A DNA stretch of 20,000 bases from an uncultured virus (IMG/VR IMGVR_UViG_3300027863_000003). Lineage: Duplodnaviria; Heunggongvirae; Uroviricota; Caudoviricetes. This document shows, one piece after another, positions 6,001-20,000 of the stretch. Where the stretch lies: the IMG/VR virus record IMGVR_UViG_3300027863_000003; one strand, given 5' to 3'. A model generated the notes under the pieces. The model saw only the letters and a program-made list of their open reading frames with translations. It searched no databases and had not been told where the DNA came from. Position 1 is the stretch's first letter, and every line of letters begins with the position of its first letter. A program made the translations under genes and the position numbers.

Positions 6001-9000
6001 CCAAGCAAAATTACATGGAAGCACTTGGCCGCCATGAAGCCATCCATCATGCCGCCCTTGAATTGCTTGACCCCATAGAAGCCGCCAGCATTGCGGTATG
6101 GTTGCGTGAACGGCATCCCAAGAAATACAAGAAATTCGTGGAATCGTACACTGGTGGGCGCGATGTTGAATTGAGTGATTTCCAAATTGGCCACGAAATT
6201 TACAGGGCGGAACTTGAGCGCATTTTGTATGGGCGCACCACGGAAAGTTACCGGCCTGAAAACTTGTCGCTGTTCAAGGTGGCAAGAGAATATGTTCATT
6301 CGATAATTGCCAGAGTGCTCAGGTATATCCGCAGCAAGCTGGGGATGGAAAACGAACTGGATACTTTACTTGCACGTGCCCTTGAACGCATAAATGCAGA
6401 AAAGATTGAAGCCAACAAGCAGCGGCTTGATGCGCAAATACGCGGCGAACCAATTGAAGAATTATCGGATTCTGAGGTTCAGAATCAACCCGGCAAAAAC
6501 CTCGCCGCGATGCCGGCTGCGCCCGAAGCCTCTCCGGCCGAGCAAAAGAAGGTGTTTGAAAAAATCAAAAACACCTATGATAACGTGGCAAAAGCCAGAA
6601 TTGATTTGTATAAGAACGCAGAGGGGGTTATCAGGACAAAGGCGTTGAATGATTATCAGGCGCACAGGGCATTTAGTTTGTTGCATGATGTTACCAAGGC
6701 ATTGAAGATTGAAGTTGCCGCACTGCCGGAAACCCAAATAGACCCCATTACCGGCGAGCCATACAAGAAATCATACTTATCCGACGACTTCATCCATCAT
6801 TATCAAGACATGCTGAATCGCGAGGTGGAAAAGGGCGTTCTCAAGCCGGATGAAGCACAGCCAAAATTACGCGCCTTGCGCAGGGCGCAGATATTGGCTG
6901 ACAAGGTCATTCGCGCAAAGGCGTGTACGAAGCTTTTGAATGAATATGAAGCCCGTCAGGCAACACTCAACAAGCTTGTCGAACTTGGCGTTTGGAAACA
7001 ATCCGACATGGCGTATCAAATGGAACTCAAACGCCTAGAGGATATTCACAATGAATTTGAAAAGATACGCGACGGCAGCAAATTTGGCGAGAACAGCCCG
7101 GAGGCAATCATGCAGGATGTTATGCGGTTGCGCGATTTTCAGAAAAACGAGATTGATTATCGCGCACGCCAGAAAGCCCTGCAGTTAAGCACGGTTCGCA
7201 ACGCGTTTGGCTTGGAAAATGTTGAAGGCGGCACATTCCAAGAGGTTTTGGATGCTGTTAAAAAACTGACCGGCATTCATGCGCAAAAGGCGCACAGCGA
7301 ATTACTGGACAAACTGATGGAGTTTGAGGCGCTTGCGCAGCGTGTTGATGCTGATTACGAGGCTGCCCGCAAAGAATTGGGGGCCGAGATTGAAAGATTG
7401 AGCAAGGAACTCAATGAAGCCGAACTGAACAGGGCCTGGGCGGTTGTGCATTTGACCGATTACCTGAATGCGATGAAGGGCAAAATGACGCTTGACGGCA
7501 CCTTCTTCACCAATGATGAACTTGAAGATGCAGCGTCACGGCTAACTGGCATTGGGATGTTTGTGCTTGACCTTGCGAAACGCAAGCCTGATTTGACCGC
7601 CAACGAATTGATGACGTGGTTGTTGAATAGCAATGCCAACCTGCCTGAAATTCCGCGACAAATTGCCAATCTTTTGGGCATTCGGTTCACAAATAACGAA
7701 GAAGGCCAGCGTGCGCTTGTCAACTTGCCGCAGATGCCCATCTCCGATGAAGCCGTGGCTGCGATGTTGCGATATGCCCAGCGGCTGCCGGGCTTTGCGT
7801 CGGCTTTGGCGCGTGTTTTTGAGAAAGCAAAGGCCGAATGGGACAACAATCCGGGTGTCCGACTCGCGCAGATTATTGCGCTCAACCGCCAAATAGAGAA
7901 TTTGGAAGGGAAAGCCAAGCTGAAGGCTGAAAAGGCGCTGCAAGAAATGCTGAATCGCTTCGTCCAAGACGAAACCGCTGTTATGTCTCGCAGTGAATTG
8001 GCTGCCAAAGGCCTGTTAGAAGCGTTGAAACAAAAGCAAATCCGGTTGAAAACATACGAGTATGCCAAAGCCTTGTTCGATGAAGTGCGTGGGGCTGAAG
8101 GTTACGCTGATTTTCAATTCCAAGTGATGAGCGGGCCGGCGGGCGGCGCAAAAGTCATGCTGCATAAATCGGACAGGGCAATAGTTTTGAGCGGCTTTAG
8201 TATTCCGCGGCCAGATGGCAAGCTTGAATCAGTGGCGCCGGTGCTTTTGAGCACTGACTTTAACTCACCATTCTATTTGCCCAACAAAATTGGCGCGATT
8301 ATGGATTGGCGCAATAAAGCCGAAGAATACGTCAATGGCTATTACCGCGCCATGAATGATTATAACTCAGGCGCAACTGATAAAACGCCGATACAAGCCG
8401 GATATAATCCGATGATAGTTGCCGGCTTGGAAGAAGAACTTAAACCAACATCTAACCTTGCCTCCCTGTATTCAGCAACATGGGCGATACCGGAACAGAC
8501 ATTGCGCAGCAACAAATTCCTTGCCAACCTGACAAGACTCGGCTTGTTCCGGCAACTGAATGAAGGCGCTCTTCAATTGCAGGGGCCGTTCGGGGCGCAG
8601 GTAGCATCTGATGTGGCAGATTTGACTGCAGTTGAAATGAAGTTGCGCACTTTATTTGACCAGAAATTGCACCCTGAATTTGCCGAGATACCCAAATTAC
8701 GCAAGGCCGCACTCGACTCGCATCGTGATGACCCGATGATAAGAACTCAGGATGATTACCGCCGTTTCATTTTCAATCCAATGGGCGAGCACCTGCGGCA
8801 ATTTGGCGTTAGTTTGGCCGCCGGCGATAGAATAGGCCCTGGTAACCTGCGAGTAACGGCAGCAGACCTTGAGCTTTTCAAACGATTGTACGACCTTGAC
8901 GTTCAAATAAGAGAGGTGCTTGCCGGCCATTCAATCCGCGGGCTTGTCCGCCGCGAAGCACAAATCATCACGCCGACTGGCGAAAAAGCAACCATTGAAT

Positions 9001-12000
9001 ATCGTAGCAGGGCAATTCCAGTAGGCGAGATGGGCACCAGCCGCATCATCAACAGGTCAGGGGAAGATTTTGTCCGGCAGTTGTCCGAAGTGTTGCGATT
9101 GGTTGATGAGATGGAGAAGAAGAATCCCGGTTCAACAGCCATTACTTATGGGGATTTGAGCAAATCCAATCATCATCCGCTAATTGACTTCTACAACTCA
9201 GAAGAGGCGCAGAACAAAATGTTGTACAGCCATATCTCGGCGGCTGGACGCACTGATTTGGCAAACAAACGCAGTCCGTTGATGACCAAGCTTGAAATGC
9301 GCCTTGCGGAAAAAATACGCTCCGGGAAACTTACACGCCCCCTATTCACTGTTGATGATTATGTTCGCGGCCTTCTTGATGCGGCTCAGGAACTGGAAAT
9401 TAAAGGATTAAGCTATGAGCAGGTGGCCCGTGAATTCCTTGGTGAACTGGCCAAATACAACAAGTACGCCCTTGATTTGGCTGCGGATATGCCCAAGGAA
9501 AAAACGTCCGAGGCATGGATTGCCGCCGCGTCCAAGCTGACTGAATTCACCACTGAAGCCAACCTGCTCAAATTACCCGGATGCTATTATGATTACTCTG
9601 TTTTGACTGATGCCGACATTGCTTCCAAGGTTGTGCGCGGCCTAGCAGAATGGAATGTTAAACTGGTTACATCACTGCGCCATGCCGCCGATGATTTGAG
9701 CAACCGGATAAGACTGGTTGAAGAGGGCGTTAAAAAGCCTGAAGAGATTTTGAGTGATTACAATGGCGATGTGTTTCTGGCCCGCGTTATTCGGGACACA
9801 ACACGGCAGCTTGCTGATGATGTTCTGGCCAAGCAAGTCCATCAATCTGACCTTGCCCAAAAGGCGTATGACATACACAGCTTGCTAGTTGGCAACTGGC
9901 TTACTTCGCCGGCGGCGGCTGGCAACAACGTGCTCTTCTCGACAGTGGCAGCCTTTGATTTGATGGCCAAGATTGGAAATTACAATCGTGTTGTCGGCGG
10001 GCTGATGACGGCAATCAATATTTTGAAGACCCTACCCAAGGCTGTCATTCAACTCGCCGGCGGGCTGGCATCTTATGTGCCTGGCTCAAAAGCCGCCGTG
10101 GATTGGCTGATTAAGAATCATCCTGAAATTTACCAGAGCATAATCAAGTGGGCGCATACACTTCGGTTGGATTCAATTTATGATGAACTCCAAGGCCTTC
10201 ATGAAACCGGTCTCGCCACTGATGAAAAATCGCTGAGGCAACAATGGCAGAAAATCATCAGCGAGGTTCAATATCCGGCGACCAAGGCTGAGCTATACCA
10301 AAAGGAAAGTGGCCCGCTTGGAAAGGCAGCCACCTACGCGGGTGCCGGCTTGCGTCTTACAGCGGCAGGCGTGAATCGAATTTCGGCTGTTCGATTCACA
10401 GACGCGCTCATCAACGCAAACAGCCTGTTCTTTGTGGATAAAATCCGCCGGCAACTCGAATACACCGCCCGCCAATACCTGAAGCGAATTGAACAAATGC
10501 AGGCTGAAGGGAAGTTGGGCGATAAATTTGACCCAACCAACAAAGAATGGGCGGTTAAGCCAGAAGAATTTTCACACAGATTGTTGAAGGGCGACCAGCT
10601 TGCCAACATTGCCTACATGCGTTCATGGTTGCGTTTGAATACGGGTGCGGAATTGGAGCAGCTTTTCCTCGACTACGGCAAGAGATTGAAGGCCGACCCT
10701 GACGCTCAACTTTGGGACAACGAAATGCAACAACGCCTAGTCAGAGGCATAGTGGCCCATATTAACAAGCCGATACCTGGGCGCAACAGGGCGATATTGA
10801 TTGGCAAGGACAGGTTCCTGACGTGGTTTGCGATGTTGCAAGGGTACACGGGCGACCTTCTGTTGAAATTAACGGATGGTTTCCGCTCTGCGCATGGGGC
10901 TGCGTCATATCAACGCATTCTCACGCCCACCTTGTATTTGATGGGGTTGGCCGCGATGGCGGCTTATGCTGGCGGCACCGCCTTAACATATCGTGATTGG
11001 TGGGCTTACTTGTTTGAAGGCCGGTTGCAACGCGCCGTGACGCCGTTGGACAAGGAATTCTGGGCAAATCCAGTGACGAATACGAGCCTAGCCGCCTTCT
11101 CGGCCATACCATATATCGGCACTGCGATGTTGCAGATACTCGGCGAAATACGTGGCCGCCGCGGTTTTGACCCGGCAGATTCCATTGTTGCCATATCGCA
11201 ATTGCACGACCTTCAGATGCTGTTCGGCAGCCTGTGGGCGTTGCGTGATAATCCGGCAAGTTGGCCGATACCATTGCGCCGGTGGGCGGAGCGTAACTTC
11301 CCGTATTTCCGCTCGATTGAATACATCACAGGCACTGGCCGCGCGGATTATACGAGCGGCGTCAACAGCTTTTATGCGGTTGCGAAGAATAAGGGGCTGA
11401 TAAAAGAGCGCGCCCAACGGCAAATGGGGTTCTTCATTCCGGGAGTGCCCTCGGCTCTTTCAGACCGCCTGCGCCGCGCCATAATGGACGGGGATACGAC
11501 AGAAATTAAAGAAATAAAGGGCGAGTTATACGATTACCATTACAAGACTGCGATTGAAAATGGCAAGACGCCTGATGAAGCCAAACGCCTTGCTGAAGTA
11601 CAAACCAAGCGCGATTACATTTCTCTTTCGCCGGTGTTGCAGGCAACCAACCGCCGCAAATTTGCGCAGTCAGAATATGAGGATGTTGTTAATTCGATGA
11701 ACGACAGGCAGCGGTTTGCCTTTGAAAGAGTGCAGAAGGCATGGAAAGCTGCCGCTCCGTTGTTCAATGTCAGTGAAGGTTCGGCGGCGTTAATCCCGTG
11801 GAAGACTGAGGCTGAAGAACAGGCGCCGGGCGTAACCGGCGCTCAAGTCAGGCTCCAGCCGGTGGCCGGCTCAGCGTCCGGCACCACTGGAAGAGGCCGC
11901 TCTGTAACGCCTGGCGGCTTGCCAACTTCACTCATGTGGGGTATGGGAGGCATGGGGGGCCAGCGGGTTTCAACAAGCCCGATAAATCTCCGCGCACCTG

Positions 12001-12215
12001 CGCCGCTCCGGATGCCGGCTATACGACCTTCAATCACGGCTGGGACTGTCCGCCTGCCAACCGGCCTTGGCAGCATGGGCGGGCGGATGAATCGGTCGGG
12101 CGGGCGCCGGTCAATGCCGCGCATAAGCGGGCGGATAAAGAGCGGCATCAAACCAAGAGCAACCTTGACAAGCAAACCGTTGCGCACAAAACTACCGACA
12201 AGAATAAGACTATGA
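3..12215 (+). CDS. Giant polyvalent / virion-ejected multidomain protein, 5'-truncated (ParB-like, SF2 helicase, HExxH peptidase-like, hydrophobic C-terminal region)
   Basis: The frame is open from nt 3 (GAEPAANAPATPEKPLPTNL...), so the TTG at 48 is unlikely to be the true start. It runs >4000 codons without a stop to TGA at 12213-12215. The internal domains (listed separately) are joined by P/K/E/A-rich linkers, as in phage polyvalent proteins. Confidence 0.9.
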   Translation, partial: GAEPAANAPATPEKPLPTNLATGAKPEEQKSPPASVMAPETPATKPPEQTAAPKAGPPKPPEPLAPAAEKPVKPRPPAPTTGVTPLPTPITTSEQKKEKPESEKPAPVLPTNLGAGQKSEEKKVAPEKQAPTAVSAPKPVKIRATLWADGSVETQDEEVTGFKFARDENNRIFVNKYGIAEITNGEDSYRIFIKKLSPEAKRELGWDEASVVYEPPISPEVEKLLDELRDIHASKEYEQASQKILAQKRSHLTKDEERAFNRSREIWNEISKLPPELAAELPDDAFREWQDSRLDNFSIQSAKELHRAFLLRGEPIAAENIENKLAETLVNVHSKHPDDRAEAKRHNKETKAVIDELWRAREEYKKNKKATPPAPAPAEPAKPIELKPTPPIPTGAKVEVVGKGDDKYPGVYSILPLSELQASHTETFSPNEKYPLSNTRQYHLESQKAERDKVNKGAYEPIPDLLVEPSVSASVGPPVVAWDRGTGQWVVLGGNGRTLMYKIMPEEKRAQVHEYAKQSAKKLGLPEPKTPDDVIVRVIDPIDTSTREGREAANRIVDSLNRSDMLSRSPFNMGKDDARNIPDDDALQLLDELTEAAPNQTINIYRRFVERMIGSGKIEQASRASILDNDVDVRTYVESFLAEKAFPNSTIPRLMADSNTPATIRGLMKVAMPTVLRLRSQKTAFGEKLANVITGALDKVSLASDDISKISSALEMASGQSELGESEASKAGRALIYLLQKYANVKTDKKTKSQAALSVWGKIFNYLDQALANQKKQGGGENLFGTVEDDALVFRRTLQGIMTEKEYKSFGLKPVSEDSQTPPRFGYNIPALERAISETTGKLPTSITMGATKVEKPTKPAVKPKGKAKVAPVEEKPPTTIRAGEEEVKPTEPPAKPRITSGQEAKKKETVPIKPEEEKPAPEPTLDELKAERDALERRLKKYGELPPRDQARLEEVKMAIEKAELGQEYLPQTKQAIIPDEETLKKQQRSFVEKKAKEGTLKPQGEQENLEEGRKQPELLPTGQGDIFSGQPYRPTPKPAESRPAAEMPKPQVAQPQPAVAKPAEQPKPAITQAPVETKGRSYQQVITPDFGKNNKTFRRSAFDGARRAMPKPPSAQQDPNGLKLYTNASTVGGFLYEAGVRDFKEWERLMREMYETPDNPRTKDTNYWQKIYKNARMMLDEEGGESLAAIPAKGPGDLIIGPEGEQRGGAEGEKKTVEVQFVPHPSNPKLLIARPEYTKPAPDHLERLAREHPELANLRNSLAPHQVEAFNTMYSAITRPHPNKAGLLADGTGAGKTRVMLALAHAIAVSEKRPVIMVVPQAVLKANWAKGTSKGGSYFKDAKQMGIPLVLAREGAIRPGEIIITTYENVGKWADAMSWFPARSENAAFVIFDESHYLKTPDSRRTIEAKAMIRRANKVLFSSATPADKPVHIHYLETLGIGRFDDVMKKLGYEKVQRQGRRQDGTPYDYYTWEIAPHVTAQEIAKRYSELFDKLTADGVMIKREISMAPLNIRVLEFETPDEARMIIDDFEFFYWEHKTSNTALDRANLMMICRRYLEPFKIPFATNIALKELNNGRKVVIYLSRVNQAKAGAWSGKGLEKTYHKHSDIASTLDELRNALIESGVEEDKIGELSGRMTEEEIHDAVKNFNEGDVQVLISTVETGGAGINLDDATGNHPRSVIFMTAPFSGIENVQALGRVNRLTTKSNSNIYYLFTKHPIDEWNSDIVMHKLRLMGATVKGQLAGLDEILRDRERAKMFDDLTEENLEADINTAKSPEELLKEYLQRGRKKRGAIQGGAAKGEGEAAKGEGQPVKTAPFPSVPWREVRTKDGGKFYVYPLKPDAPETKAFWDWWHEQGGKENKLDIRVRKIPEKYRKTQGADWEVVANAPYEKGAAAKEPSTNVETGTTESPPNPDENLINPIKNGVDDVSDKLGTRPDIEIDNEEKPKKPGEEEGEEGLKGAPRLSIYYDTGTGRIVLRPRELAKELELFGSDEKAKQNYMEALGRHEAIHHAALELLDPIEAASIAVWLRERHPKKYKKFVESYTGGRDVELSDFQIGHEIYRAELERILYGRTTESYRPENLSLFKVAREYVHSIIARVLRYIRSKLGMENELDTLLARALERINAEKIEANKQRLDAQIRGEPIEELSDSEVQNQPGKNLAAMPAAPEASPAEQKKVFEKIKNTYDNVAKARIDLYKNAEGVIRTKALNDYQAHRAFSLLHDVTKALKIEVAALPETQIDPITGEPYKKSYLSDDFIHHYQDMLNREVEKGVLKPDEAQPKLRALRRAQILADKVIRAKACTKLLNEYEARQATLNKLVELGVWKQSDMAYQMELKRLEDIHNEFEKIRDGSKFGENSPEAIMQDVMRLRDFQKNEIDYRARQKALQLSTVRNAFGLENVEGGTFQEVLDAVKKLTGIHAQKAHSELLDKLMEFEALAQRVDADYEAARKELGAEIERLSKELNEAELNRAWAVVHLTDYLNAMKGKMTLDGTFFTNDELEDAASRLTGIGMFVLDLAKRKPDLTANELMTWLLNSNANLPEIPRQIANLLGIRFTNNEEGQRALVNLPQMPISDEAVAAMLRYAQRLPGFASALARVFEKAKAEWDNNPGVRLAQIIALNRQIENLEGKAKLKAEKALQEMLNRFVQDETAVMSRSELAAKGLLEALKQKQIRLKTYEYAKALFDEVRGAEGYADFQFQVMSGPAGGAKVMLHKSDRAIVLSGFSIPRPDGKLESVAPVLLSTDFNSPFYLPNKIGAIMDWRNKAEEYVNGYYRAMNDYNSGATDKTPIQAGYNPMIVAGLEEELKPTSNLASLYSATWAIPEQTLRSNKFLANLTRLGLFRQLNEGALQLQGPFGAQVASDVADLTAVEMKLRTLFDQKLHPEFAEIPKLRKAALDSHRDDPMIRTQDDYRRFIFNPMGEHLRQFGVSLAAGDRIGPGNLRVTAADLELFKRLYDLDVQIREVLAGHSIRGLVRREAQIITPTGEKATIEYRSRAIPVGEMGTSRIINRSGEDFVRQLSEVLRLVDEMEKKNPGSTAITYGDLSKSNHHPLIDFYNSEEAQNKMLYSHISAAGRTDLANKRSPLMTKLEMRLAEKIRSGKLTRPLFTVDDYVRGLLDAAQELEIKGLSYEQVAREFLGELAKYNKYALDLAADMPKEKTSEAWIAAASKLTEFTTEANLLKLPGCYYDYSVLTDADIASKVVRGLAEWNVKLVTSLRHAADDLSNRIRLVEEGVKKPEEILSDYNGDVFLARVIRDTTRQLADDVLAKQVHQSDLAQKAYDIHSLLVGNWLTSPAAAGNNVLFSTVAAFDLMAKIGNYNRVVGGLMTAINILKTLPKAVIQLAGGLASYVPGSKAAVDWLIKNHPEIYQSIIKWAHTLRLDSIYDELQGLHETGLATDEKSLRQQWQKIISEVQYPATKAELYQKESGPLGKAATYAGAGLRLTAAGVNRISAVRFTDALINANSLFFVDKIRRQLEYTARQYLKRIEQMQAEGKLGDKFDPTNKEWAVKPEEFSHRLLKGDQLANIAYMRSWLRLNTGAELEQLFLDYGKRLKADPDAQLWDNEMQQRLVRGIVAHINKPIPGRNRAILIGKDRFLTWFAMLQGYTGDLLLKLTDGFRSAHGAASYQRILTPTLYLMGLAAMAAYAGGTALTYRDWWAYLFEGRLQRAVTPLDKEFWANPVTNTSLAAFSAIPYIGTAMLQILGEIRGRRGFDPADSIVAISQLHDLQMLFGSLWALRDNPASWPIPLRRWAERNFPYFRSIEYITGTGRADYTSGVNSFYAVAKNKGLIKERAQRQMGFFIPGVPSALSDRLRRAIMDGDTTEIKEIKGELYDYHYKTAIENGKTPDEAKRLAEVQTKRDYISLSPVLQATNRRKFAQSEYEDVVNSMNDRQRFAFERVQKAWKAAAPLFNVSEGSAALIPWKTEAEEQAPGVTGAQVRLQPVAGSASGTTGRGRSVTPGGLPTSLMWGMGGMGGQRVSTSPINLRAPAPLRMPAIRPSITAGTVRLPTGLGSMGGRMNRSGGRRSMPRISGRIKSGIKPRATLTSKPLRTKLPTRIRL
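1210..2000 (+). other. DdrB-type ParB/Srx-like domain within the giant protein
   Basis: YSILPLSELQASH...FSPNEKYP...NTRQY...SASVGPPVV...VVLGGNGRTLM...VIVRV resembles the remembered pattern of DdrB-like ParB domains in polyvalent proteins (GaP-hh...h-GNGR). Boundaries are approximate. Confidence 0.7.
3790..5260 (+). other. SF2 helicase/ATPase module, strawberry-notch-like
   Basis: Q-motif LAPHQ, Walker A GLLADGTGAGKT (3864-3899), Walker B VIFDESH (DESH 4185-4196), motif III SSATP, motif V GGAGINLDD, motif VI QALGRVNR (5094-5117). The DGTGxGK and GINL-D...QxLGRxxR forms are typical of strawberry-notch-like helicases. Confidence 0.88.
5900..6400 (+). other. Zincin-like metallopeptidase (MPTase-type) segment
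   Basis: IYYDTGTGRIVL precedes ALGRHEAIHH (HExxH at 6033-6047), with a downstream Glu-bearing helix IGHEIYRAELE (~6190). This is the usual layout of polyvalent-protein metallopeptidases. Confidence 0.6.
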
Positions 12216-12541
12216 GAAGAGTAAACAGGCATCAACTGGCTGAAAAACTGGCTGAACGACTGGCAATAACAAGGCCGATGGCGAACAAAATCATCGCCGA
12301 ATTCATTGAGTGCTTCCGGGAGGAGGTTCTGGAAGGCAAACCCATCTACCTACGGCGCCTAGGTAAATTTGAGGTTAAACTGCGCCGCGCCAAAATTGCC
12401 TTCGACATGTTCAATAGGGAGCCAATTGAAATCCCAGCTCATTTCAAACTTGTGTTCAAAGCCGAGGCTGGTCTCCGGCGGGAAGTCATGCAAATCCCGA
12501 TAAAAAATGTTCTGGCGGCCCCCAAGCCGCCAGAACAATAG
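12212..12541 (+). CDS. HU/IHF-family DNA-bending protein (109 aa)
   Basis: MRRVNRHQLAEKLAERLAITRPMANKIIAEFIECFREEVLEGKPIYLRRLGKFEVKLRRAKIAFDMFNREPIEIPAHFKLVFKAEAGLR fits the HU/IHF pattern. The ATG at 12212 overlaps the giant ORF stop (ATGA). Confidence 0.9.
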   Translation: MRRVNRHQLAEKLAERLAITRPMANKIIAEFIECFREEVLEGKPIYLRRLGKFEVKLRRAKIAFDMFNREPIEIPAHFKLVFKAEAGLRREVMQIPIKNVLAAPKPPEQ

Positions 12542-14178: not shown

Positions 14179-14595
14179 TCATTCTCCCATAGAAAAGCCG
14201 TGCTCAAATACGCGCTCAACCTCCGTGTCGGGAACCCTTGTTCCCAACACAACAGCTTCAGCTAGGGCTGTGCCATCCGACAAATCTTTAAGTCTGGCCT
14301 TTGACCAATCCTTGTCCAGCCATACTGTCTTTTTCCTTGAAGGCGTGTATGTACAATTATAGACGGCGTATGTGTTCTTAAAATCTCGCCAATTGTACAA
14401 GAACCTGAATGTTTCAAGCACAGCCGCTCGCAGGGTTGTGTAAATGCAAAGCGGCCCGCAACCTGAGCTTGGTACGGTTTTCTTGCCGACTTTATATTCC
14501 ACGACCCCATCAATATGGGGTCCCATTTCCGATACCAGCCTTCTATTGCGAGTGACGAAAACCACTTTGTAACCTTCTCTCCATCTTTCTTTCAT
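14179..14595 (-). CDS. Paralogue 1 of the 'GYK...GCGPLC...LA' domain family (138 aa)
   Basis: WREGYKVV...RLVS...EYKVGKKTVPSSGCGPLCIYTTLRAA...VYNCTYTPS...VW...LSDGTALAEAVVLGTRV. ATGA-coupled to paralogue 2. Confidence 0.85.
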   Translation of the reverse strand: MKERWREGYKVVFVTRNRRLVSEMGPHIDGVVEYKVGKKTVPSSGCGPLCIYTTLRAAVLETFRFLYNWRDFKNTYAVYNCTYTPSRKKTVWLDKDWSKARLKDLSDGTALAEAVVLGTRVPDTEVERVFEHGFSMGE

Positions 14596-15161
14596 TTTGT
14601 GGCCTCCAATTTTTTGATTTCAACTTGCGACACTCTTTTCCCAATTATGACCTTGCTGGCCAGAACGGAGCCAACTTCAAGCCTGCCAAATTGAGTTGTA
14701 CCTATTTCGGGCGTCCATATTGTTTGCAGCTCTGATGGTTTATACCGGCAATGATATATTACCAGTGTTTCACAGCGCATGATAGCCTCGACGGCGGGCC
14801 TTAAAACTGAATAAACACAGATGGGGCCGCAACCCGGCTTGGGTTCCGTTACTTGGCCAACTTCATAAATGAGTCCCCCATCAAAAGGCTTGATGTACGG
14901 CGAGTAAAGTTTGCCTTCAAATCTATGAAGCAGCTTGAAGCCATCCAGCCACAATTCATCATAATAGCGCAGGATGTTTTCGATTTGATTTTGCAACTGC
15001 CAAAGCAGCCGGAAATCCACTTCTGCTTTAAGTTTTTGCTTAAACGGCAATCCATGAATTTTTGTCACGTTTTCTAGGCGTTGCTTGCGCGCCCGGAAAA
15101 ACTCCTCGTATGTCGGATGTTTCATTTGAATACTTTGCATTTCAAGCTTGCTATTTTCCAT
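14592..15161 (-). CDS. Paralogue 2 of the same family, with a ~70-aa helical N-terminal extension (189 aa)
   Basis: RBS AGGAGAGG. WLDGFKLL...KLYS...YEVGQVTEPKPGCGPICVYSVLRPA...IYHCRYKPS...IW...LEVGSVLASKVIIGKRV. Confidence 0.85.
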   Translation of the reverse strand: MENSKLEMQSIQMKHPTYEEFFRARKQRLENVTKIHGLPFKQKLKAEVDFRLLWQLQNQIENILRYYDELWLDGFKLLHRFEGKLYSPYIKPFDGGLIYEVGQVTEPKPGCGPICVYSVLRPAVEAIMRCETLVIYHCRYKPSELQTIWTPEIGTTQFGRLEVGSVLASKVIIGKRVSQVEIKKLEATK

Positions 15162-15488: not shown

Positions 15489-15857
15489 TCAACACAAATC
15501 AACAAAGCATTCCTTCCCCTCAACTTTAATGGTGCCACGGCCCCAATCGCACCGGCTTGCGGCTTCGAGACTGGCCCAAAATTCAGCCTCGCTCGCCGGC
15601 CTCAAAATTTCCTCAGTTTCACAGAGTTTGAGCATCGGACGCCCTGCCGGCCCAGCGCCGCCCGAATTATTCCATGCGGCGGCGATTATGCGCGCCATCC
15701 TTTCAGTCATGCCAGCAACATTGACAATGAACCTTTCCTTGTCCCGCTGGACGACAAGGTCGCGCGCATCATCGGGCAAGTCCCCTTGTGGTCGAGACTT
15801 GAAGACCCAGCCGCGCGACGTCCAATGTTGTACAACCATCCATTTTGACTCATTCAT
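15489..15857 (-). CDS. Hypothetical protein (122 aa, MNESKWMVVQHW...)
   Basis: The ATG overlaps the stop of the upstream gene, consistent with co-oriented packing. Confidence 0.65.
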   Translation of the reverse strand: MNESKWMVVQHWTSRGWVFKSRPQGDLPDDARDLVVQRDKERFIVNVAGMTERMARIIAAAWNNSGGAGPAGRPMLKLCETEEILRPASEAEFWASLEAASRCDWGRGTIKVEGKECFVDLC

Positions 15858-16635
15858 AAATCGTTTCTGGAGTTGATATCCACCAATTGCCGGCCGCAAA
15901 CTCGGCCAGCATCCCTTTCTGGCAGTGGTGTATGTACCAGGCCTTATCAGAGGAAAGCTGGTAATACAGCTTTCCGTCATGCCAGCCCACCGGCTGGGCA
16001 ATATCATTCTGCTCCCAGTCAGGCGTTTCATCGGGAGTCAGCAAATACCCCTGAATCATCGCCGGCAAGCGCAACTGATGCCGCCACAGGGCAACGGCCT
16101 CGGAGTCATTGCTCATGTCGTACACAGCCAACGACCCGACTTCCACCGGCTCACCTTCGTGGTTGCTGACCGGACTTTCGGCCAGCTCCCGCAGCGGGCG
16201 CTCCCACTCAAAATTGCGAATGATGCAGTCCGCTACGGCCACACTGACGAGAGCCTCGTCCTGCCAGTACTCAGGGACACGTGCTCGGCACCAGCGGCCA
16301 AATTCCTTAATTAAATCATTCAGCCAATGTCGCGGCACCTCCGCGATGCGCCATTCTCGCCGGTATTTCGCGCCGCCGTCATCCAGCGGCTCGGCTGGTG
16401 GTAGTTTTTCCGAGGCACGCATGAAAAATATCATGTCGAACCTAGAATTTCGCGCCCTCCAACCGCCGCACTGGAGCGGCTCAATGGCAGAGTAAACGAC
16501 GTCCTTATGTGTGACGTAGGGCGAATTGCGCCCGACCACGTCAGCCCTAATATTGTCGTACCACATTGACACTGCGGTTGACTGGGCCAATGAGTCACAC
16601 GCAGCCCGAATAATTTTCATCACATGTCCATTCAT
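15850..16635 (-). CDS. Trp-rich hypothetical protein (261 aa, MNGHVMKIIRAA...)
   Basis: Long ORF. The start is placed at ATG 16635 because the upstream in-frame extension is occupied by repeated non-coding elements. Confidence 0.75.
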   Translation of the reverse strand: MNGHVMKIIRAACDSLAQSTAVSMWYDNIRADVVGRNSPYVTHKDVVYSAIEPLQCGGWRARNSRFDMIFFMRASEKLPPAEPLDDGGAKYRREWRIAEVPRHWLNDLIKEFGRWCRARVPEYWQDEALVSVAVADCIIRNFEWERPLRELAESPVSNHEGEPVEVGSLAVYDMSNDSEAVALWRHQLRLPAMIQGYLLTPDETPDWEQNDIAQPVGWHDGKLYYQLSSDKAWYIHHCQKGMLAEFAAGNWWISTPETIYE

Positions 16636-16654
16636 ATTTTCTTTCGGCCTCGCG

Positions 16655-16698
16655 GGCCAGCTCACGCTTGCGACCATTCGCTTCGAGGCGCTGGTGAC
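16655..16698 (-). repeat. Leader element copy A (putative structured cis-RNA)
   Basis: 34 of 44 positions are identical, without gaps, to 18930-18973. It lies 19 nt upstream of a start codon. Confidence 0.75.
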
Positions 16699-16703
16699 GC
16701 ACC

Positions 16704-16750
16704 TTGCCCGACGGCACACACCGGCGGGCGGGTTATTGCTCACTCAATCA
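16704..16750 (-). repeat. Gene-boundary repeat copy 1 (TGATTGAGTGAGCAAtAAC..GCCCGCCGG-hairpin-CGGGCAA)
   Basis: Shares TGATTGAGTGAGCAA, CGCCCGCCGG and CGGGCAA with 17390-17442. It forms an imperfect GC hairpin. Confidence 0.75.
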
Positions 16751-16977
16751 AGGACACCCAAAAAACGGCCACCATGTTCAGCGGCCCATCTCTGGGCAGC
16801 CCTGACCGCCGTCTTGCGTCGCAGGAATGTACGTGGCGCGTCCTTCCATACGAAAGTACCATGTACTGTCGCGTGACACATCCGAACAGCATACACGTCG
16901 CGCTTGAGCGCTGGGTAGTCCGACGCAGCCGCCATTAAGTAAACCTCAGTATTTCCGTGTTCATTTCTTGTTTTCAT
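16744..16977 (-). CDS. Hypothetical protein (77 aa, MKTRNEHGNTEV...)
   Basis: AAAGGA RBS before the ATG at 16977. Confidence 0.7.
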   Translation of the reverse strand: MKTRNEHGNTEVYLMAAASDYPALKRDVYAVRMCHATVHGTFVWKDAPRTFLRRKTAVRAAQRWAAEHGGRFLGVLD

Positions 16978-17017
16978 GTTTCCTTTCTTTTGCCGCCGGC
17001 GAACCGGCGTACTTGCC

Positions 17018-17374
17018 TCAATGGACGACGCATATTTTGCCTTCAATAATAAGGACGCCCCCTCGGCTTTGACGTTTTTCTTCTGGGGTCGCCAGGCGCA
17101 CTGCACGCCACGTTTCGCACTCGTACAAGATTGGAGGGGCCTTTTTCCCCACCGGCAGAAGGGCGTCGTTATTAGCAAGCTTCATGTTGTGGATGCGGGC
17201 CTTCAAGGCGGCCTCCCGACGTGTCATTCCGTCGCTCACCACTCGCCACATGCCATCGCATCGACCAACGACAGGTTGATAACCACCCTTTAATTGGACG
17301 AAGCCAAACCGGCTGGCATATCGCTCACCCAGCCAGACCTTCTGGATGAGATACCAATTTTGTTCTGTTTTCAT
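17018..17374 (-). CDS. Hypothetical protein (118 aa)
   Basis: AGGAG RBS before the ATG, in the co-oriented run. Confidence 0.75.
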   Translation of the reverse strand: MKTEQNWYLIQKVWLGERYASRFGFVQLKGGYQPVVGRCDGMWRVVSDGMTRREAALKARIHNMKLANNDALLPVGKKAPPILYECETWRAVRLATPEEKRQSRGGVLIIEGKICVVH

Positions 17375-17389
17375 TTTTGCTCCTATTAT

Positions 17390-17442
17390 TTGCCCGCCGG
17401 CGCCTAGGCGCCGGCGGGCGGTTGTTGTTGCTCACTCAATCA
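17390..17442 (-). repeat. Gene-boundary repeat copy 2, containing a perfect 28-bp palindrome (17392-17419)
   Basis: GCCCGCCGGCGCCT|AGGCGCCGGCGGGC is its own reverse complement. The flanks match 16704-16750. Confidence 0.85.
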
Positions 17443-17665
17443 CATAACAAGCCCGTGGCTCACCATTAACGTCGGCTTCAATTACACCTGCGCCACCGCC
17501 GAATCTGTCCTCGATACTCGCTTGCAATTCGTCCGCGCTGGCCTGCCTGATGGGTTTACCCGTCTTATAATCATACAACCACGGGCCGGCTAATCCACGA
17601 CCTGTCTTTTTGTGGCTCTTTTGCGAACCACAATTGTGTTTGTGGCTCATATTTTTAGGCTTCAT
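17432..17665 (-). CDS. Hypothetical protein (72-77 aa; start 17665 or 17650)
   Basis: Lies immediately downstream of the ring nuclease gene. Contains ...LYDYKTGKPIRQASADELQASIE...GVIEADVNGEPRACYVIE. Confidence 0.7.
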   Translation of the reverse strand: MKPKNMSHKHNCGSQKSHKKTGRGLAGPWLYDYKTGKPIRQASADELQASIEDRFGGGAGVIEADVNGEPRACYVIE

Positions 17666-17993
17666 AAATCATCCACCATTGAACAGGGTATGATTGTAGT
17701 TCCTCGGCCTTAAGAATTTTGCCCTCTTCGAGACGCCTGCCAAGCGCCCCAACGAGCAAAATATCGCCCTTTGTTATTTTGTAATCTTCCCGATTCATTT
17801 TTACATCCAAATCGAGTTGCGCGGAAAAAAGTTGCGCCGTGGACTCGTGGCCAACAATGGATTTCAACCTGTCAATTGTAATAATTTCCTGAGCTAATGC
17901 ACGCGCTTCCTCCTTGCTTAAAGCGCGGAAACATATAGTATGCGTTTTCCCGTTCAACATGTTTGTACTAAACGCATTTGCCACAATCAGCAT
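17655..17993 (-). CDS. acrIII-1: AcrIII-1 / DUF1874 (STIV B116, SIRV1 gp29, YddF family) cyclic tetra-adenylate ring nuclease, anti-type III CRISPR
   Basis: 112 aa with all family hallmarks: ANAFSTNML, SIVGHESTAQL (catalytic His), NR, and RRLEEGKILKAEEL. RBS AAGGAGG. Confidence 0.93.
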   Translation of the reverse strand: MLIVANAFSTNMLNGKTHTICFRALSKEEARALAQEIITIDRLKSIVGHESTAQLFSAQLDLDVKMNREDYKITKGDILLVGALGRRLEEGKILKAEELQSYPVQWWMIYEA

Positions 17994-18002
17994 ATTCCCT
18001 CC

Positions 18003-18407
18003 TTATTTCTTCCTCCAATGCCAATGCGGGAGCGCTTTTTTAAGCTCCCGGTTTATTTTCCACCCCGAAACCCGTCTGCAAAGCTTAACTGAATCCGCCA
18101 AGACCGTCCCCCTTGGCAACAGGCTCTCTATCTGCCCCGCGCCATTATTCATCCAAACTCTGTTTTCGGCGGCCGGCTCATAATCGCAGTAATAGATTTC
18201 CATATTCAATTCCTGTCTGGTGTCTTCTAGGCATATCGCGTAAATTGCCGCCTCAAGTAAATTCGAGAAAACACACAAAGGCCCGCAGCCGCCTGCCGGC
18301 CTTGTTACTTTGCCAAAGGCATATTCAACGCCGCCCAACATCGTTGGCGTTGTGCATGAATTCAGCCGTCCGTCTGCGCATTTGTTTACTACTTTGAACC
18401 CCTTCAT
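18003..18407 (-). CDS. Paralogue 3 of the 'GYK...GCGPLC...LA' family (134 aa)
   Basis: MKGFKVV...GRLNS...EYAFGKVTRPAGGCGPLCVFSNLLEA...IYYCDYEPA...VW...LPRGTVLADSVKLCRRV. RBS AAGGAGG. Confidence 0.85.
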   Translation of the reverse strand: MKGFKVVNKCADGRLNSCTTPTMLGGVEYAFGKVTRPAGGCGPLCVFSNLLEAAIYAICLEDTRQELNMEIYYCDYEPAAENRVWMNNGAGQIESLLPRGTVLADSVKLCRRVSGWKINRELKKALPHWHWRKK

Positions 18408-18419
18408 GGCAGCCTCCTT

Positions 18420-18905
18420 TTACTCAAGCTCTTTAGCCCAATGTTCCAACAAACGTTGGACTTGATTAACTTCCCAATCATTATCGGCAATCCACCCGTC
18501 TGCCGGAACCCATGACGCATTAAAGAAGCGCCAGTCTTTTTCGTTTTCGGTGCCCCAGTCCACGTCCGAGACTAGAGACCAGTCTTCCCATGGTGTTTTG
18601 CTACCCCGCGGGTAGCAATATTTCGCCGCCTTGCGATTATCAACTTCCACCCATTCCCCATCCGACGGTCCAGGGTCTTCAACCGGAGCCCGCTCGCTCA
18701 AAAGCGTCCGCACGGTTTTGGTGTCCCTCAACCTGATTGGGTTGGGTTCCTCCTCCCACAGGATTTTCCCTTCCTCTGCGTCATACCGCAGAGCAAGGTA
18801 ATGCCCTTTTGGCGTTGATGTAAAGAGGCGCTTGCGAAACTCCGCCACAAGTTCCTCCGCATCCAGATTTTGAAGTCTTTGTGCCAGTTCGTTTGTGTTT
18901 TTCAT
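18420..18905 (-). CDS. Acidic, Trp-rich hypothetical protein (161 aa)
   Basis: GAGG RBS. First gene downstream of the 18906-19123 intergenic region. Confidence 0.8.
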   Translation of the reverse strand: MKNTNELAQRLQNLDAEELVAEFRKRLFTSTPKGHYLALRYDAEEGKILWEEEPNPIRLRDTKTVRTLLSERAPVEDPGPSDGEWVEVDNRKAAKYCYPRGSKTPWEDWSLVSDVDWGTENEKDWRFFNASWVPADGWIADNDWEVNQVQRLLEHWAKELE

Positions 18906-18929
18906 TTTACAGCCTCTCTGCGGCCCAGC

Positions 18930-18973
18930 GGCCAGCTCACACTTGGGTTTATTCCCTTTTGAGCGCTGGTGAC
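18930..18973 (-). repeat. Leader element copy B (putative structured cis-RNA)
   Basis: Ungapped match to 16655-16698. It lies 24 nt upstream of ATG 18905. Confidence 0.75.
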
Positions 18974-19059
18974 TCGCTCTTGTTCTGATGCAAACCTATC
19001 ACCGGCCGAAATTTTTCCAAGAAAAAAAAGTGAAAAAATTTTGCTCATAAAACCGCCTA

Positions 19060-19075
19060 TGGCACGAAAGTTGCT
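19060..19075 (+). promoter_or_regulatory. Sigma-54 (-24/-12) consensus box, + strand
   Basis: TGGCACG-AAAG-TTGCT matches TGGCACG-N4-TTGCW exactly. Confidence 0.7.
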
Positions 19076-19086
19076 TTATTAAAGCC

Positions 19087-19103
19087 AGCAAGTTTTGTGC
19101 CAA
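19087..19103 (-). promoter_or_regulatory. Sigma-54 (-24/-12) consensus box, - strand, facing the acrIII-1 gene run
   Basis: The reverse complement reads TTGGCACA-AAAC-TTGCT, with correct GG-N10-GC spacing. It is intergenic. Confidence 0.72.
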
Positions 19104-19123
19104 GCCGTAAAAGTTTGGCCTTT

Positions 19124-19354
19124 TTATTTTGTGCTCTCACGTTCCTTCTCGTTCTCTTCCGGCAGGTACCGCCTTGCAAGCGATTTGATTTTTCTCACTG
19201 AATCGTACAAATCGCAGCCGTCTCTTTCCAGCCTTTCAATAATCCGGTCGGCAATGGGGTCAGGCAATTTCTCTGACGGCCCATGCTGTTGAATGGCCTC
19301 GTAGATTTGCTCGCAAATATCAGTGAGCTGTTTTTCAATTTTTTCAATCTTCAT
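19124..19354 (-). CDS. Small helical, charged hypothetical protein (76 aa, MKIEKIEKQL...)
   Basis: GGAGG RBS before the ATG at 19354. Confidence 0.75.
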   Translation of the reverse strand: MKIEKIEKQLTDICEQIYEAIQQHGPSEKLPDPIADRIIERLERDGCDLYDSVRKIKSLARRYLPEENEKERESTK

Positions 19355-19378
19355 GTTGCCTCCATTTAATTTCAATTT

Positions 19379-19404
19379 GTGCCCCGTGATTGCTCACGGG
19401 GCAC
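19379..19404. other. Intergenic 11-bp perfect hairpin (GCAA tetraloop on - strand); possible + strand terminator or processing/stability stem
   Basis: GTGCCCCGTGA-TTGC-TCACGGGGCAC, followed by CTTTGTTATT on the + strand. There is no U-tract on the - strand. Confidence 0.65.
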
Positions 19405-19409
19405 CTTTG

Positions 19410-20000
19410 TTATTGCACTCTCTCTTCAATTTTGACCGCATCGGCCAGGTCTGTCCCGGCCGAAAGGTGATAAACTGAAACAGGCAGGAGCACATTTGTC
19501 CACACCTGAGTTTCTTGTGACGGCTTATATTTGCAACGGTAGATTTCCTTGGCCCGCTGTTTCTGATACCTCTTTCGGCCTGCAAAGAATTGAGCCGTTT
19601 CCAAGGTTCGGAAAACGCTCAACGGCCCATGCCCAGGTTCCGGCGTTGTTACCTCGCCTAGGCGATATTCCTTGCGGCCCTCAGTCACCGTGAGCAGTGG
19701 TGACACTAACCTGCCATCACACGTTCGGATTAACACCTTATAACCGTCTGTCCATTCCTCTCCGCATGGCCGCCAGCGGCAGCCTTTGTTACTGTATTCC
19801 GGCTGCACCATGTTATTGGAATACACTACTTTTCTTCCCCCGCTTTTAGGATTTACCTCCATTATGAGATAACTCCCGCTTGTCCCGCCTTCTTCATCCT
19901 CCCTTCTTTTTATTTGTTCCACGTGCTTTTCCGCCTTTGAGCGGCTGTAGTGCCAGCCCAGCAAGGCGGTATGCTCAACCTTTTCATCGAATGGTGTAAA
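19410..20000 (-). CDS. Paralogue 4 of the 'GYK...GxGPL...LA' family, fused to an N-terminal small domain; 5'-truncated
   Basis: The frame is open to the window end (FTPFDEKVEHTALLGWHY...). C-terminal WTDGYKVL...GRLVS...EYRLGEVTTPEPGHGPLSVFRTLETA...IYRCKYKPS...VW...LSAGTDLADAVKIEERV. Confidence 0.85.
   Translation of the reverse strand, partial: FTPFDEKVEHTALLGWHYSRSKAEKHVEQIKRREDEEGGTSGSYLIMEVNPKSGGRKVVYSNNMVQPEYSNKGCRWRPCGEEWTDGYKVLIRTCDGRLVSPLLTVTEGRKEYRLGEVTTPEPGHGPLSVFRTLETAQFFAGRKRYQKQRAKEIYRCKYKPSQETQVWTNVLLPVSVYHLSAGTDLADAVKIEERVQ

Follow-up and report, generated by a model that had tools for sequence, protein, structure and literature searches.

In a 20,000-nucleotide (nt) stretch of DNA from an uncultured virus of the Caudoviricetes (IMG/VR IMGVR_UViG_3300027863_000003), here called the window, we found two copies of a short element, each just upstream of a different minus-strand gene. 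The window corresponds to positions 38999-58998 of a 63,256-nt metagenome contig, which was found in three DNA sequencing runs, two of them labelled hot springs metagenome. We tentatively read the two copies, with a confidence that stops a little short of even, as a portable structured leader module in a mosaic and probably anti-defence gene array, which would be bound by a trans-acting factor. An earlier note on this DNA, made from the letters alone, had pointed out the element and proposed a switch, a processing site or an operator.

Two copies of a repeat with invariant outer blocks

A repeat search returned copy A (16655-16698) and copy B (18930-18973), both on the minus strand, as a two-copy direct repeat of 44 nt that aligns without gaps at 77% identity (34/44), in agreement with the earlier note. 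The same loci were picked out by a two-block pattern, GTCACCAGCGC-N15-30-GTGAGCTGGCC, whose matches in the window were exactly copies A and B on the minus strand; a pair of matches arose in 0/200 dinucleotide shuffles. Taken singly, the 11-mer blocks GTCACCAGCGC and GTGAGCTGGCC occur exactly in the window only at these two copies, and with up to 2 mismatches allowed they gave 9 and 11 matches, against 5.1 and 5.5 expected. The repeat is real and far beyond chance.

The differences between the copies are unevenly distributed. The central 22 positions contain all 10 of them, and the outer 22 are identical (hypergeometric p=2.6e-4), a clustering which indicates, from the two copies compared, that the outer blocks are under constraint and the centre is free. 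The homologous or functional unit exceeds the 44-nt core, extending over about 16704-16646 and 18979-18922 (about 58 to 59 nt). The core repeat ends 19 nt (copy A) and 24 nt (copy B) before the ATG codons at 16635 and 18905, the distances given earlier, and the genes that follow are indeed unrelated: comparison of the 261-amino-acid (aa) and 161-aa proteins gave a best BLASTP E value of 2.0.

Predicted RNA structure of the proposed leader module

With its flanks included, the sense-strand consensus is predicted to fold into four tandem mini-hairpins, P1 to P4. The full modules, both on the minus strand, span 16646-16704 (module A, with coordinates from the extended alignment of both copies) and 18922-18979 (module B). 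P1 has 5 to 6 bp that close an invariant GUCACCA; in module A it pairs 16704-16700 with 16690-16686 around a loop (16699-16691) that holds this motif, and in module B it pairs 18979-18975 with 18965-18961. P2 (16681-16679 with 16672-16670 in A, 18956-18954 with 18947-18945 in B) reads GCG/CGC in copy A and GGG/CCC in copy B. P3 (16668-16666 with 16661-16659, and 18943-18941 with 18936-18934) has the form AGY-GUGA-GCU, with a GNRA-type loop. P4 is GGCC-N4/5-GGCC (16658-16655 with 16649-16646, and 18933-18930 with 18925-18922) and ends about 10 nt (A) and 16 nt (B) before the ATG. The structural details of the earlier note were found as it had described them: the inner hairpin exchanges C-G for G-C, GUCACCA is enclosed by the upstream stems AGGUGC/GCGCCU and GAGCG/CGCUC, UCAC is complementary to GUGA and CCAGC to GCUGG in both copies, and both end in the GGCC-N4/5-GGCC hairpin.

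Pairing in the extended alignment is kept through the changes. In P1 to P3, 11/11 counted pairs form in both copies; three of these are changed on both sides and two go from C-G to U.G. When the P1-P3 partners were slid by 1 to 3 columns, pairing fell to 23 to 41%, and the probability that all pairs would be kept, given where the changes fall, was about 0.01. Beyond the 44-nt repeat, where the flanks cannot be aligned, lies the 5' strand of P1, and yet its register of pairing is the same in A and B. Flanks drawn at random from the window matched the P1 pairing in that register in 0.45% (copy A) and 1.65% (copy B) of 200,000 draws, and in any of 16 registers in 2.8% and 10%, respectively. These pairing and flank probabilities were computed post hoc. 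Compared with column shuffles, the consensus energy gave a z of -3.3 for the 44-mer (2/1000) and -3.7 for the extended alignment (3/500). The consensus fold energy was -20.25 kcal/mol on the sense strand versus -16.35 kcal/mol on the antisense strand, and both G.U pairs exist on the sense strand only.

The arms of P1 and P2 vary while the GUCACCA loop and the linear blocks are invariant, which favors, as far as the letters tell, single-stranded recognition, most likely of RNA, over recognition of duplex DNA. In a dimeric operator on double-stranded DNA, the half-sites are kept and the centre drifts.

When the 44-mers were folded singly, A and B took the same shape, with CCAGC/GCUGG around a small inner hairpin. 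The CCAGC/GCUGG and UCAC/GUGA alternative pairings involve invariant bases only (5/5 pairs invariant), and for this reason they appear neither to favor nor to disfavor a switch or a pseudoknot. Since the strands are adjacent, with no linker between them, an H-type pseudoknot is sterically unlikely.

Position of the copies relative to promoters and genes

Copy B is preceded by an AT-rich spacer of 218 nt. A possible sigma-70-type promoter, TTGGAA-16 nt-TGnTAGGTT, lies upstream of it at 18990-19020 (minus strand), outside the shared part; it was read by eye and is absent from the list of a sigma-70-like consensus scan of the region, which gave 9 sites against 7.8 expected and none at either copy. 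Because of this possible promoter, copy B would lie in a 5' untranslated region (UTR). A 48-aa open reading frame (ORF) runs through copy B (18902-19048, minus strand), and its stop overlaps the ATG of the 161-aa gene (ATGA, 18902-18905). Copy A lies between two genes of the array.

Reused junction modules and a cassette variant

Directly upstream of copy A lies a junction module (16706-16750, minus strand) made of TGATTGAGTGA, then GCAATAAC, then an imperfect GC hairpin. A second one (17389-17442, minus strand) carries the three-frame stop, GCAACAAC and a perfect 14-bp GC hairpin, and has no leader module. TGATTGAGTGA, which is found on the minus strand at 16736-16750 and 17428-17442, places TGA in all three frames; the order is TGATTGAGTGA, GCAAYAAC and a GC-rich hairpin without a U-tract. 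These strong junction modules stand between genes g8 and g9 (upstream of copy A) and between g6 and g7, and weaker ones stand between g7 and g8 and between g1 and g2 (16978-17030, 19376-19422). Since the two strong modules end different genes in different frames, the junction repeat is one at the DNA level, and it resembles a universal "stop plus hairpin" border between gene cassettes. The GC hairpin at 17389-17424 recurs 1,633 nt beyond the end of the window and where short contigs end, which makes it a multi-copy element of the genome and an assembly breakpoint.

A variant contig (X3 record 15; 586 nt, 4.7x) carries 18947-18899 with 5 differences, followed by 363 other letters and then by 17324-17151 with 23/174 differences. 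The corresponding branch node of the assembly graph (18918-18947, minus strand; X3 records 14, 15 and 17; joint 17324/18899) leads from the 3' half of copy B into a different cassette. Graph breaks were found at 18918-18947 (X3) and at 18999-19028 (X2), with a loose end at 19019 that runs into unrelated sequence. By de Bruijn logic, the variant would share 18918-18947 exactly and diverge no further than about 4 nt from where P4 ends on its 3' side, and copies A and B stop being alike at the same boundary. Divergence of the variant at the A/B boundary suggests that three different cassettes stand behind the same leader. More broadly, both hot-spring runs contain diverged contigs of low depth (about 4-5x, with the main strain at about 18-20x) that are 80-90% identical to parts of the array. 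They cover 17151-17324, 18899-18947, about 19019, 17660-17772 and 14258-14405, and they differ in cassette content, which shows that related strains coexist with the main one.

Searches for known families and further copies

Rfam 15 gave no match in the 20-kb window at gathering thresholds, consistent with the motif having been left unmatched to any known class in the earlier note. At E values up to 10, the region 16400-19300 gave six weak matches (best E=2), none of them on the strand of the element; MESTIT1_1 (plus strand, E=4.6) overlaps copy B and is an Rfam model without base pairs. Searched against IMG/VR, the two-block pattern returned 2 loci, both coding, and a relaxed form of it returned 15 loci, none alike. 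The two-block pattern gave 117 loci among metagenome contigs and 77 among GTDB genome contigs; apart from the element's own copies (L117, L118), these were chance or coding matches in GC-rich genomes. An nhmmer profile run on the window and on four distantly related viral loci (L197-L200) found copies A and B at E values of about 1e-18, and its next match (E=0.05) lay within a coding region. A covariance model scored copies A and B at 90.4 and 88.9 bits; the next score in the window was 12.5 bits, and L197-L200 gave at most 11.3 bits. Hairpins with a GUCACCA loop occur in the window at copies A and B only.

Other readings of the repeat were considered and dropped. A Chi-like reading of GCTGGTG gave 6 sites against 2.5 expected, with 10/200 shuffles as high, and thus no clear enrichment. 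An adenine pattern of the kind left by diversity-generating retroelements was rejected, as only 5/10 differences involve an A in copy B. Readings as parS, attC, an IS200/605 end or an N4 hairpin promoter were also rejected: the inverted segments are not nested, the small ORFs of the window gave no recombinase or transposase domain, and the giant protein described below gave no RNA polymerase domain.

The search pattern also caught an unrelated conserved sequence at 18 loci, 16 of them in metagenomes and two on one contig of a Pirellulales metagenome-assembled genome (L004, L012, L022, L049, L056, L067, L073, L075, L081, L089, L096, L098, L106, L109, L111, L113, L179, L196). It resembles a coding gene present in several copies, which may be a mobile element, and has no relation to copies A and B.

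A model of the leader and the evidence that weighs against it

According to our model, the module would be a leader of about 58 to 59 nt with four tandem hairpins. It would form part of the transcript of the gene that follows it, with copy A placed between two genes of the array and copy B in the 5' UTR downstream of a promoter. It would be one of a reusable set of intergenic junction modules among the small minus-strand accessory genes of a hot-spring phage or mobile element. A trans-acting factor would bind the invariant loops and linear blocks on the mRNA, and the bound factor would set the translation or the stability of the adjacent gene; two unrelated cassettes would be co-regulated through the shared leader. 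The leader sequence would also double as a recombination point, with genes being swapped in behind it.

Several observations weigh against this model. The structure was derived from the two copies themselves (n=2), which makes the pair counts circular, and a shuffle control of these counts is uninformative with two rows (56/500). The hairpins are tiny (3-6 bp). Folded alone, copy A is no more stable than its shuffles (z=-0.40, 70/200) and copy B is modestly more stable (z=-2.52), and in single-sequence minimum-free-energy folding the extended regions take different shapes in A and B and shift with temperature. At 65 C the four-hairpin fold has energies of -7.5 and -5.5 kcal/mol, and the source is a hot spring; with energies this low, the modeled fold would need a bound factor to persist in a hot-spring host. 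No candidate for such a protein was recognized, as the 18 small ORFs of the array gave no regulator domain in Pfam or NCBIfam. The evidence for a cassette variant comes from one contig of low depth (4.7x). A terminator-like hairpin with a U-run stands at 16786-16767, about 70 nt upstream of copy A; if this terminator is real, copy A needs a promoter of its own, which would favor a signal at the DNA level. Terminator-like sites numbered 17 against 10.1 expected, and the one at 16786-16767 may be due to chance. Finally, there was no Rfam match, third copy or homologue in the window, IMG/VR, or the metagenome and GTDB contigs. Within the sequences searched (the 20-kb window of the 63,256-nt contig and the databases), the result is formally the absence of further homologues or of significant covariation, which the earlier note had said would speak against its proposal.

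Alternative explanations of the repeat

The copies could instead be a DNA-level signal, in which blocks with a fixed 22-bp spacer form a non-sigma-70 promoter or a bipartite operator, the two units are switched together and the hairpins are incidental. Two invariant 11-bp blocks at fixed spacing around a variable center are what such a signal would look like, and the 19 to 24 nt from block to ATG would leave a short leader with a Shine-Dalgarno (SD) sequence. Copy A also follows a hairpin junction and lies about 70 nt past the terminator-like U-run site, an arrangement resembling the terminator-promoter cassettes described in PMC2839356. However, no sigma-70-like site was scored at the copies, no match to a sigma-54 or extracytoplasmic function (ECF) sigma factor consensus was seen by eye, and the block spacing of 33 bp from center to center is too long for -35 and -10 elements. 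The palindromic arms differ and the loop is conserved, the reverse of a dimeric operator, and a DNA-level signal leaves the P1 compensations and the sense-only G.U pairs unexplained. We regard this explanation as rather unlikely.

To much the same degree, we doubt that the element is a passive recombination junction, that is, an ancestral intergenic stretch carried along in cassette shuffling, without a regulatory role and with patchy identity due to gene conversion. The array is visibly mosaic, with reused junction modules and a GC hairpin (17389-17424) that recurs outside the window; variant contigs swap cassettes at 18918-18947 and about 19019; and no homologue was found outside this genome in the databases searched. 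Neutral decay, however, would spread the 10 differences evenly, and they are clustered. Moreover, the changes preserve pairing, and P1 is rebuilt from unrelated flank.

A coding repeat is improbable. In this explanation both copies are translated in one frame, with VTSASKRMVASVSWP forming an N-terminal extension of the 261-aa protein and VTSAQKGINPSVSWP lying near the end of the 48-aa ORF. The same frame is open in both copies (VTSA.K....SVSWP), and three third-position differences are synonymous (GCC/GCT, AGC/AGT and CCC/CCG), although pairing accounts for these three changes just as well. The gene caller used a 297-aa form of the protein behind copy A, with its start at GTG 16743 (P0001), and the ATGA overlap at 18902-18905 would also fit translation on the other side. 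On the other hand, both copies can be read through without a stop in 2/3 frames, and by chance alone a frame stayed open in 0.49 and 0.40 of shuffles. The copies share no start codon, and a start on the A side must read through the junction hairpin, which is non-coding at its other copy. By our own count, the differences are spread 4/2/5 over the codon positions, without a third-position bias.

We consider it highly improbable that the element mimics host sequence, either as a CRISPR-repeat-like RNA anti-CRISPR or as a leader antisense to a host gene. The element lies near a DUF1874 gene, and solitary repeats in phage genomes, termed Racrs, are described in PMC10651486. Copy A matches a fragment of an MFS_MOT1 transporter gene at 35/44 positions on the opposite strand. 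In a comparison of 37 distinct 22-nt spacers, 2 of which are the window's own, the spacer of the MOT1 loci (L077/L104) agreed with copy A at 13/22 positions with a 9-nt run, and the other 34 foreign spacers gave at most 11/22 with runs of at most 4. Nevertheless, the copies differ at 23% of positions and cannot both mimic one repeat; this divergence argues against the close similarity to a CRISPR repeat seen in Racrs, and the 44-nt element has no repeat-like termini. The similarity at the protein level ends at 9 residues (E=0.25), and copy B has a stop in that frame. In this comparison with the transporter gene (E 8.6e-50; L077 4783-5910, plus strand, and L104), the peptide AGQLTPATI stands against AGQLTLATI. 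With no extended similarity, we treated the MOT1 resemblance as chance.

Equally far-fetched is a riboswitch, a ribozyme or a processing RNA that would act on its own, such as a nucleotide sensor or a self-cleaving element. The only grounds for it are the alternative pairings UCAC/GUGA and CCAGC/GCUGG and the sequence conservation, and against it stand the facts that no Rfam family matched at gathering or at E values up to 10, that the alternative stems are without covariation, that there is no multi-helix junction or pocket-sized core and stability is low, and that the strands of a pseudoknot would be adjacent without a linker. Among the functions put forward in the earlier note, a protein-bound operator or cis-regulatory RNA thus fits the pattern of invariant loops and covarying stems, and nothing indicates a riboswitch, a ribozyme or a sensor of cyclic tetra-adenylate (cA4).

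Comparison with known regulatory leaders

An Aca-associated RNA motif was reportedly the subject of a study by Birkholz et al. in Nature in 2024. According to Feussner et al. (2026, PMC13551039), Aca RNA motifs lie in the 5' UTRs of anti-CRISPR and anti-defence operons, with two hairpins for Aca2 and one stem-loop for Aca1, and in anti-defence loci they stand both at operon heads and between adjacent genes. The structured leader proposed here resembles them in being a set of short hairpins just upstream of the ribosome-binding site (RBS) of putative counter-defence genes, with several copies per locus, one at an operon head and one between genes, for which co-regulation at translation is proposed (PMC13551039). 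It has no sequence relation to the Aca motifs, and no helix-turn-helix (HTH) or ribbon-helix-helix (RHH) regulator was recognized in the window. Compared with the Aca motifs, its stems vary and its loops are invariant, and both its binding and its effect are predictions. The earlier note had assumed novelty; RNA motifs in 5' UTRs and between the genes of anti-defence operons are already published (PMC13551039).

The PeSL elements of T4-type phages are, according to PMC2839356 and PMC4122927, conserved intergenic mobile regulatory cassettes that stand among non-essential ORFan genes and serve as exchange points. The present array is similar in that junction modules are reused, a co-occurring variant seen in one low-depth contig has a different cassette joined to this leader, copy A is immediately preceded by a GC hairpin and the repetition is found among ORFan genes. 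However, a PeSL is described there as a strong sigma-70-like promoter plus a terminator (PMC2839356, PMC4122927), whereas the part shared here is a row of four mini-hairpins beside the RBS in which sigma-70-like hexamers are lacking, and the exchange proposed here is read from assembly contigs.

The nut sites (boxA/boxB) of lambdoid phages and the put sites of HK022 are leader sites that act as RNA in early transcription units, with two similar copies per phage. Like them, the element comes in two copies in putative leaders, each combining a hairpin whose loop is conserved with an invariant linear block; in sequence it is not similar to them, and the window yielded no N-like protein. As the internal hairpins of the array are without U-tracts, antitermination of the nut or put kind may not be needed. 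The operator of the MS2/R17 coat protein and the RegA sites of T4 are translational operators that overlap the SD sequence or the AUG. Here, too, a small hairpin with predicted loop-specific recognition lies beside the start of the gene that would be regulated, but about 10 and 16 nt separate P4 from the ATGs, and the structure does not include the SD sequence of copy B.

Set beside these systems, the element would be of a kind already known (anti-defence leader RNA motifs and mobile regulatory cassettes), as an unrelated member of it with two copies in one uncultivated genome. A stronger claim is possible but doubtful: that it stands for a new class of portable, protein-recognized RNA leader, with a covarying GUCACCA heptaloop hairpin, a GNRA-capped mini-hairpin and a GGCC clamp. 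A thermophilic phage would attach it to interchangeable anti-defence cassettes, and any gene that recombined in behind it would at once be subject to one common post-transcriptional control, as in a plug-and-play socket that needs no Aca gene linked to it.

Gene content of the array and its surroundings

The array is a minus-strand run of about 17 small ORFs, most of which have strong SD sequences; ORFs for small basic proteins of 76, 77 and 77 aa adjoin the two copies. The gene behind copy A (15850-16635, minus strand, read from ATG 16635) encodes a 261-aa ORFan for which no family and no homologue were found. The gene behind copy B (18420-18905, minus strand; SD GAGAGG) encodes a 161-aa ORFan, also with no family found. 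Queries with the 161-aa protein, the 261-aa protein and the C-terminal part of the giant protein described below returned nothing from IMG/VR, blastn and tblastn searches of phage and plasmid collections returned nothing, and the 297-aa form matched only itself among 5.8 billion proteins (within the length window of that search).

Between the two copies, a gene at 17655-17993 (minus strand) encodes a 112-aa protein of PF08960 (STIV B116-like/DUF1874; E 1.7e-19, phrog_5063), with relatives in the Protein Data Bank that include AFV3-109, STIV B116 and 6scf (2j6b, 2j85, 6scf). This family contains the viral ring nuclease AcrIII-1. The gene is the only small ORF with a family. The earlier note had spoken of an Acr run; a single gene, the PF08960/DUF1874 one, may answer to that description, and the remaining small ORFs are without a family. 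Pfam, PHROG-function and NCBIfam searches found no regulator among the small ORFs of the array (16 proteins, then 18), and no Aca regulator of the HTH or RHH type was found among them by Pfam or NCBIfam.

Four paralogous small proteins of 134-189 aa are encoded on the minus strand at 18003-18407, 14592-15161, 14179-14595 and 19410-19964, with 32-41% identity to the first. They share the motif G(C/H)GP(L/I)(C/S)(V/I)(F/Y), belong to no Pfam, PHROG or NCBIfam family, and have distant relatives (34-38% identity) on four IMG/VR contigs (L197-L200).

Much of the window (3-12215, plus strand) is part of a gene for a 4,971-aa protein (P0002). In the reading of the window, residues 405-539 form a ddrB-ParB domain and residues 1263-1748 a SNF2/ResIII/Strawberry-notch-like helicase, the combination of domains found in the "polyvalent proteins" that phages and conjugative elements encode. 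A search of 5.8 billion proteins with the last 1,071 residues (3000-4070), confined to lengths of 2,238-7,123 aa, returned the protein itself and no relative. An HU gene follows the giant gene and is itself followed by the minus-strand array; in the Atlas, the HU protein gave no clue to the host. Between the convergent HU gene (plus strand) and the array lies a strong hairpin with T-runs on both sides (12508-12537), a probable intrinsic terminator that would act in both directions and close the array.

Implications for counter-defence control

An orphan motif with two copies is a lead rather than a result, and the 161-aa and 261-aa ORFans behind the copies could be flagged on its basis as candidate anti-defence genes. 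RNA-level control of such genes is so far known for Aca1 and Aca2, in proteobacterial phages. If our reading is true, RNA-level control of counter-defence would extend to an uncultivated hot-spring element with a DUF1874 (AcrIII-1 family) gene. Regulation would then also be tied to modular gene exchange, with one sequence that both controls a cassette and marks the site at which it is swapped.

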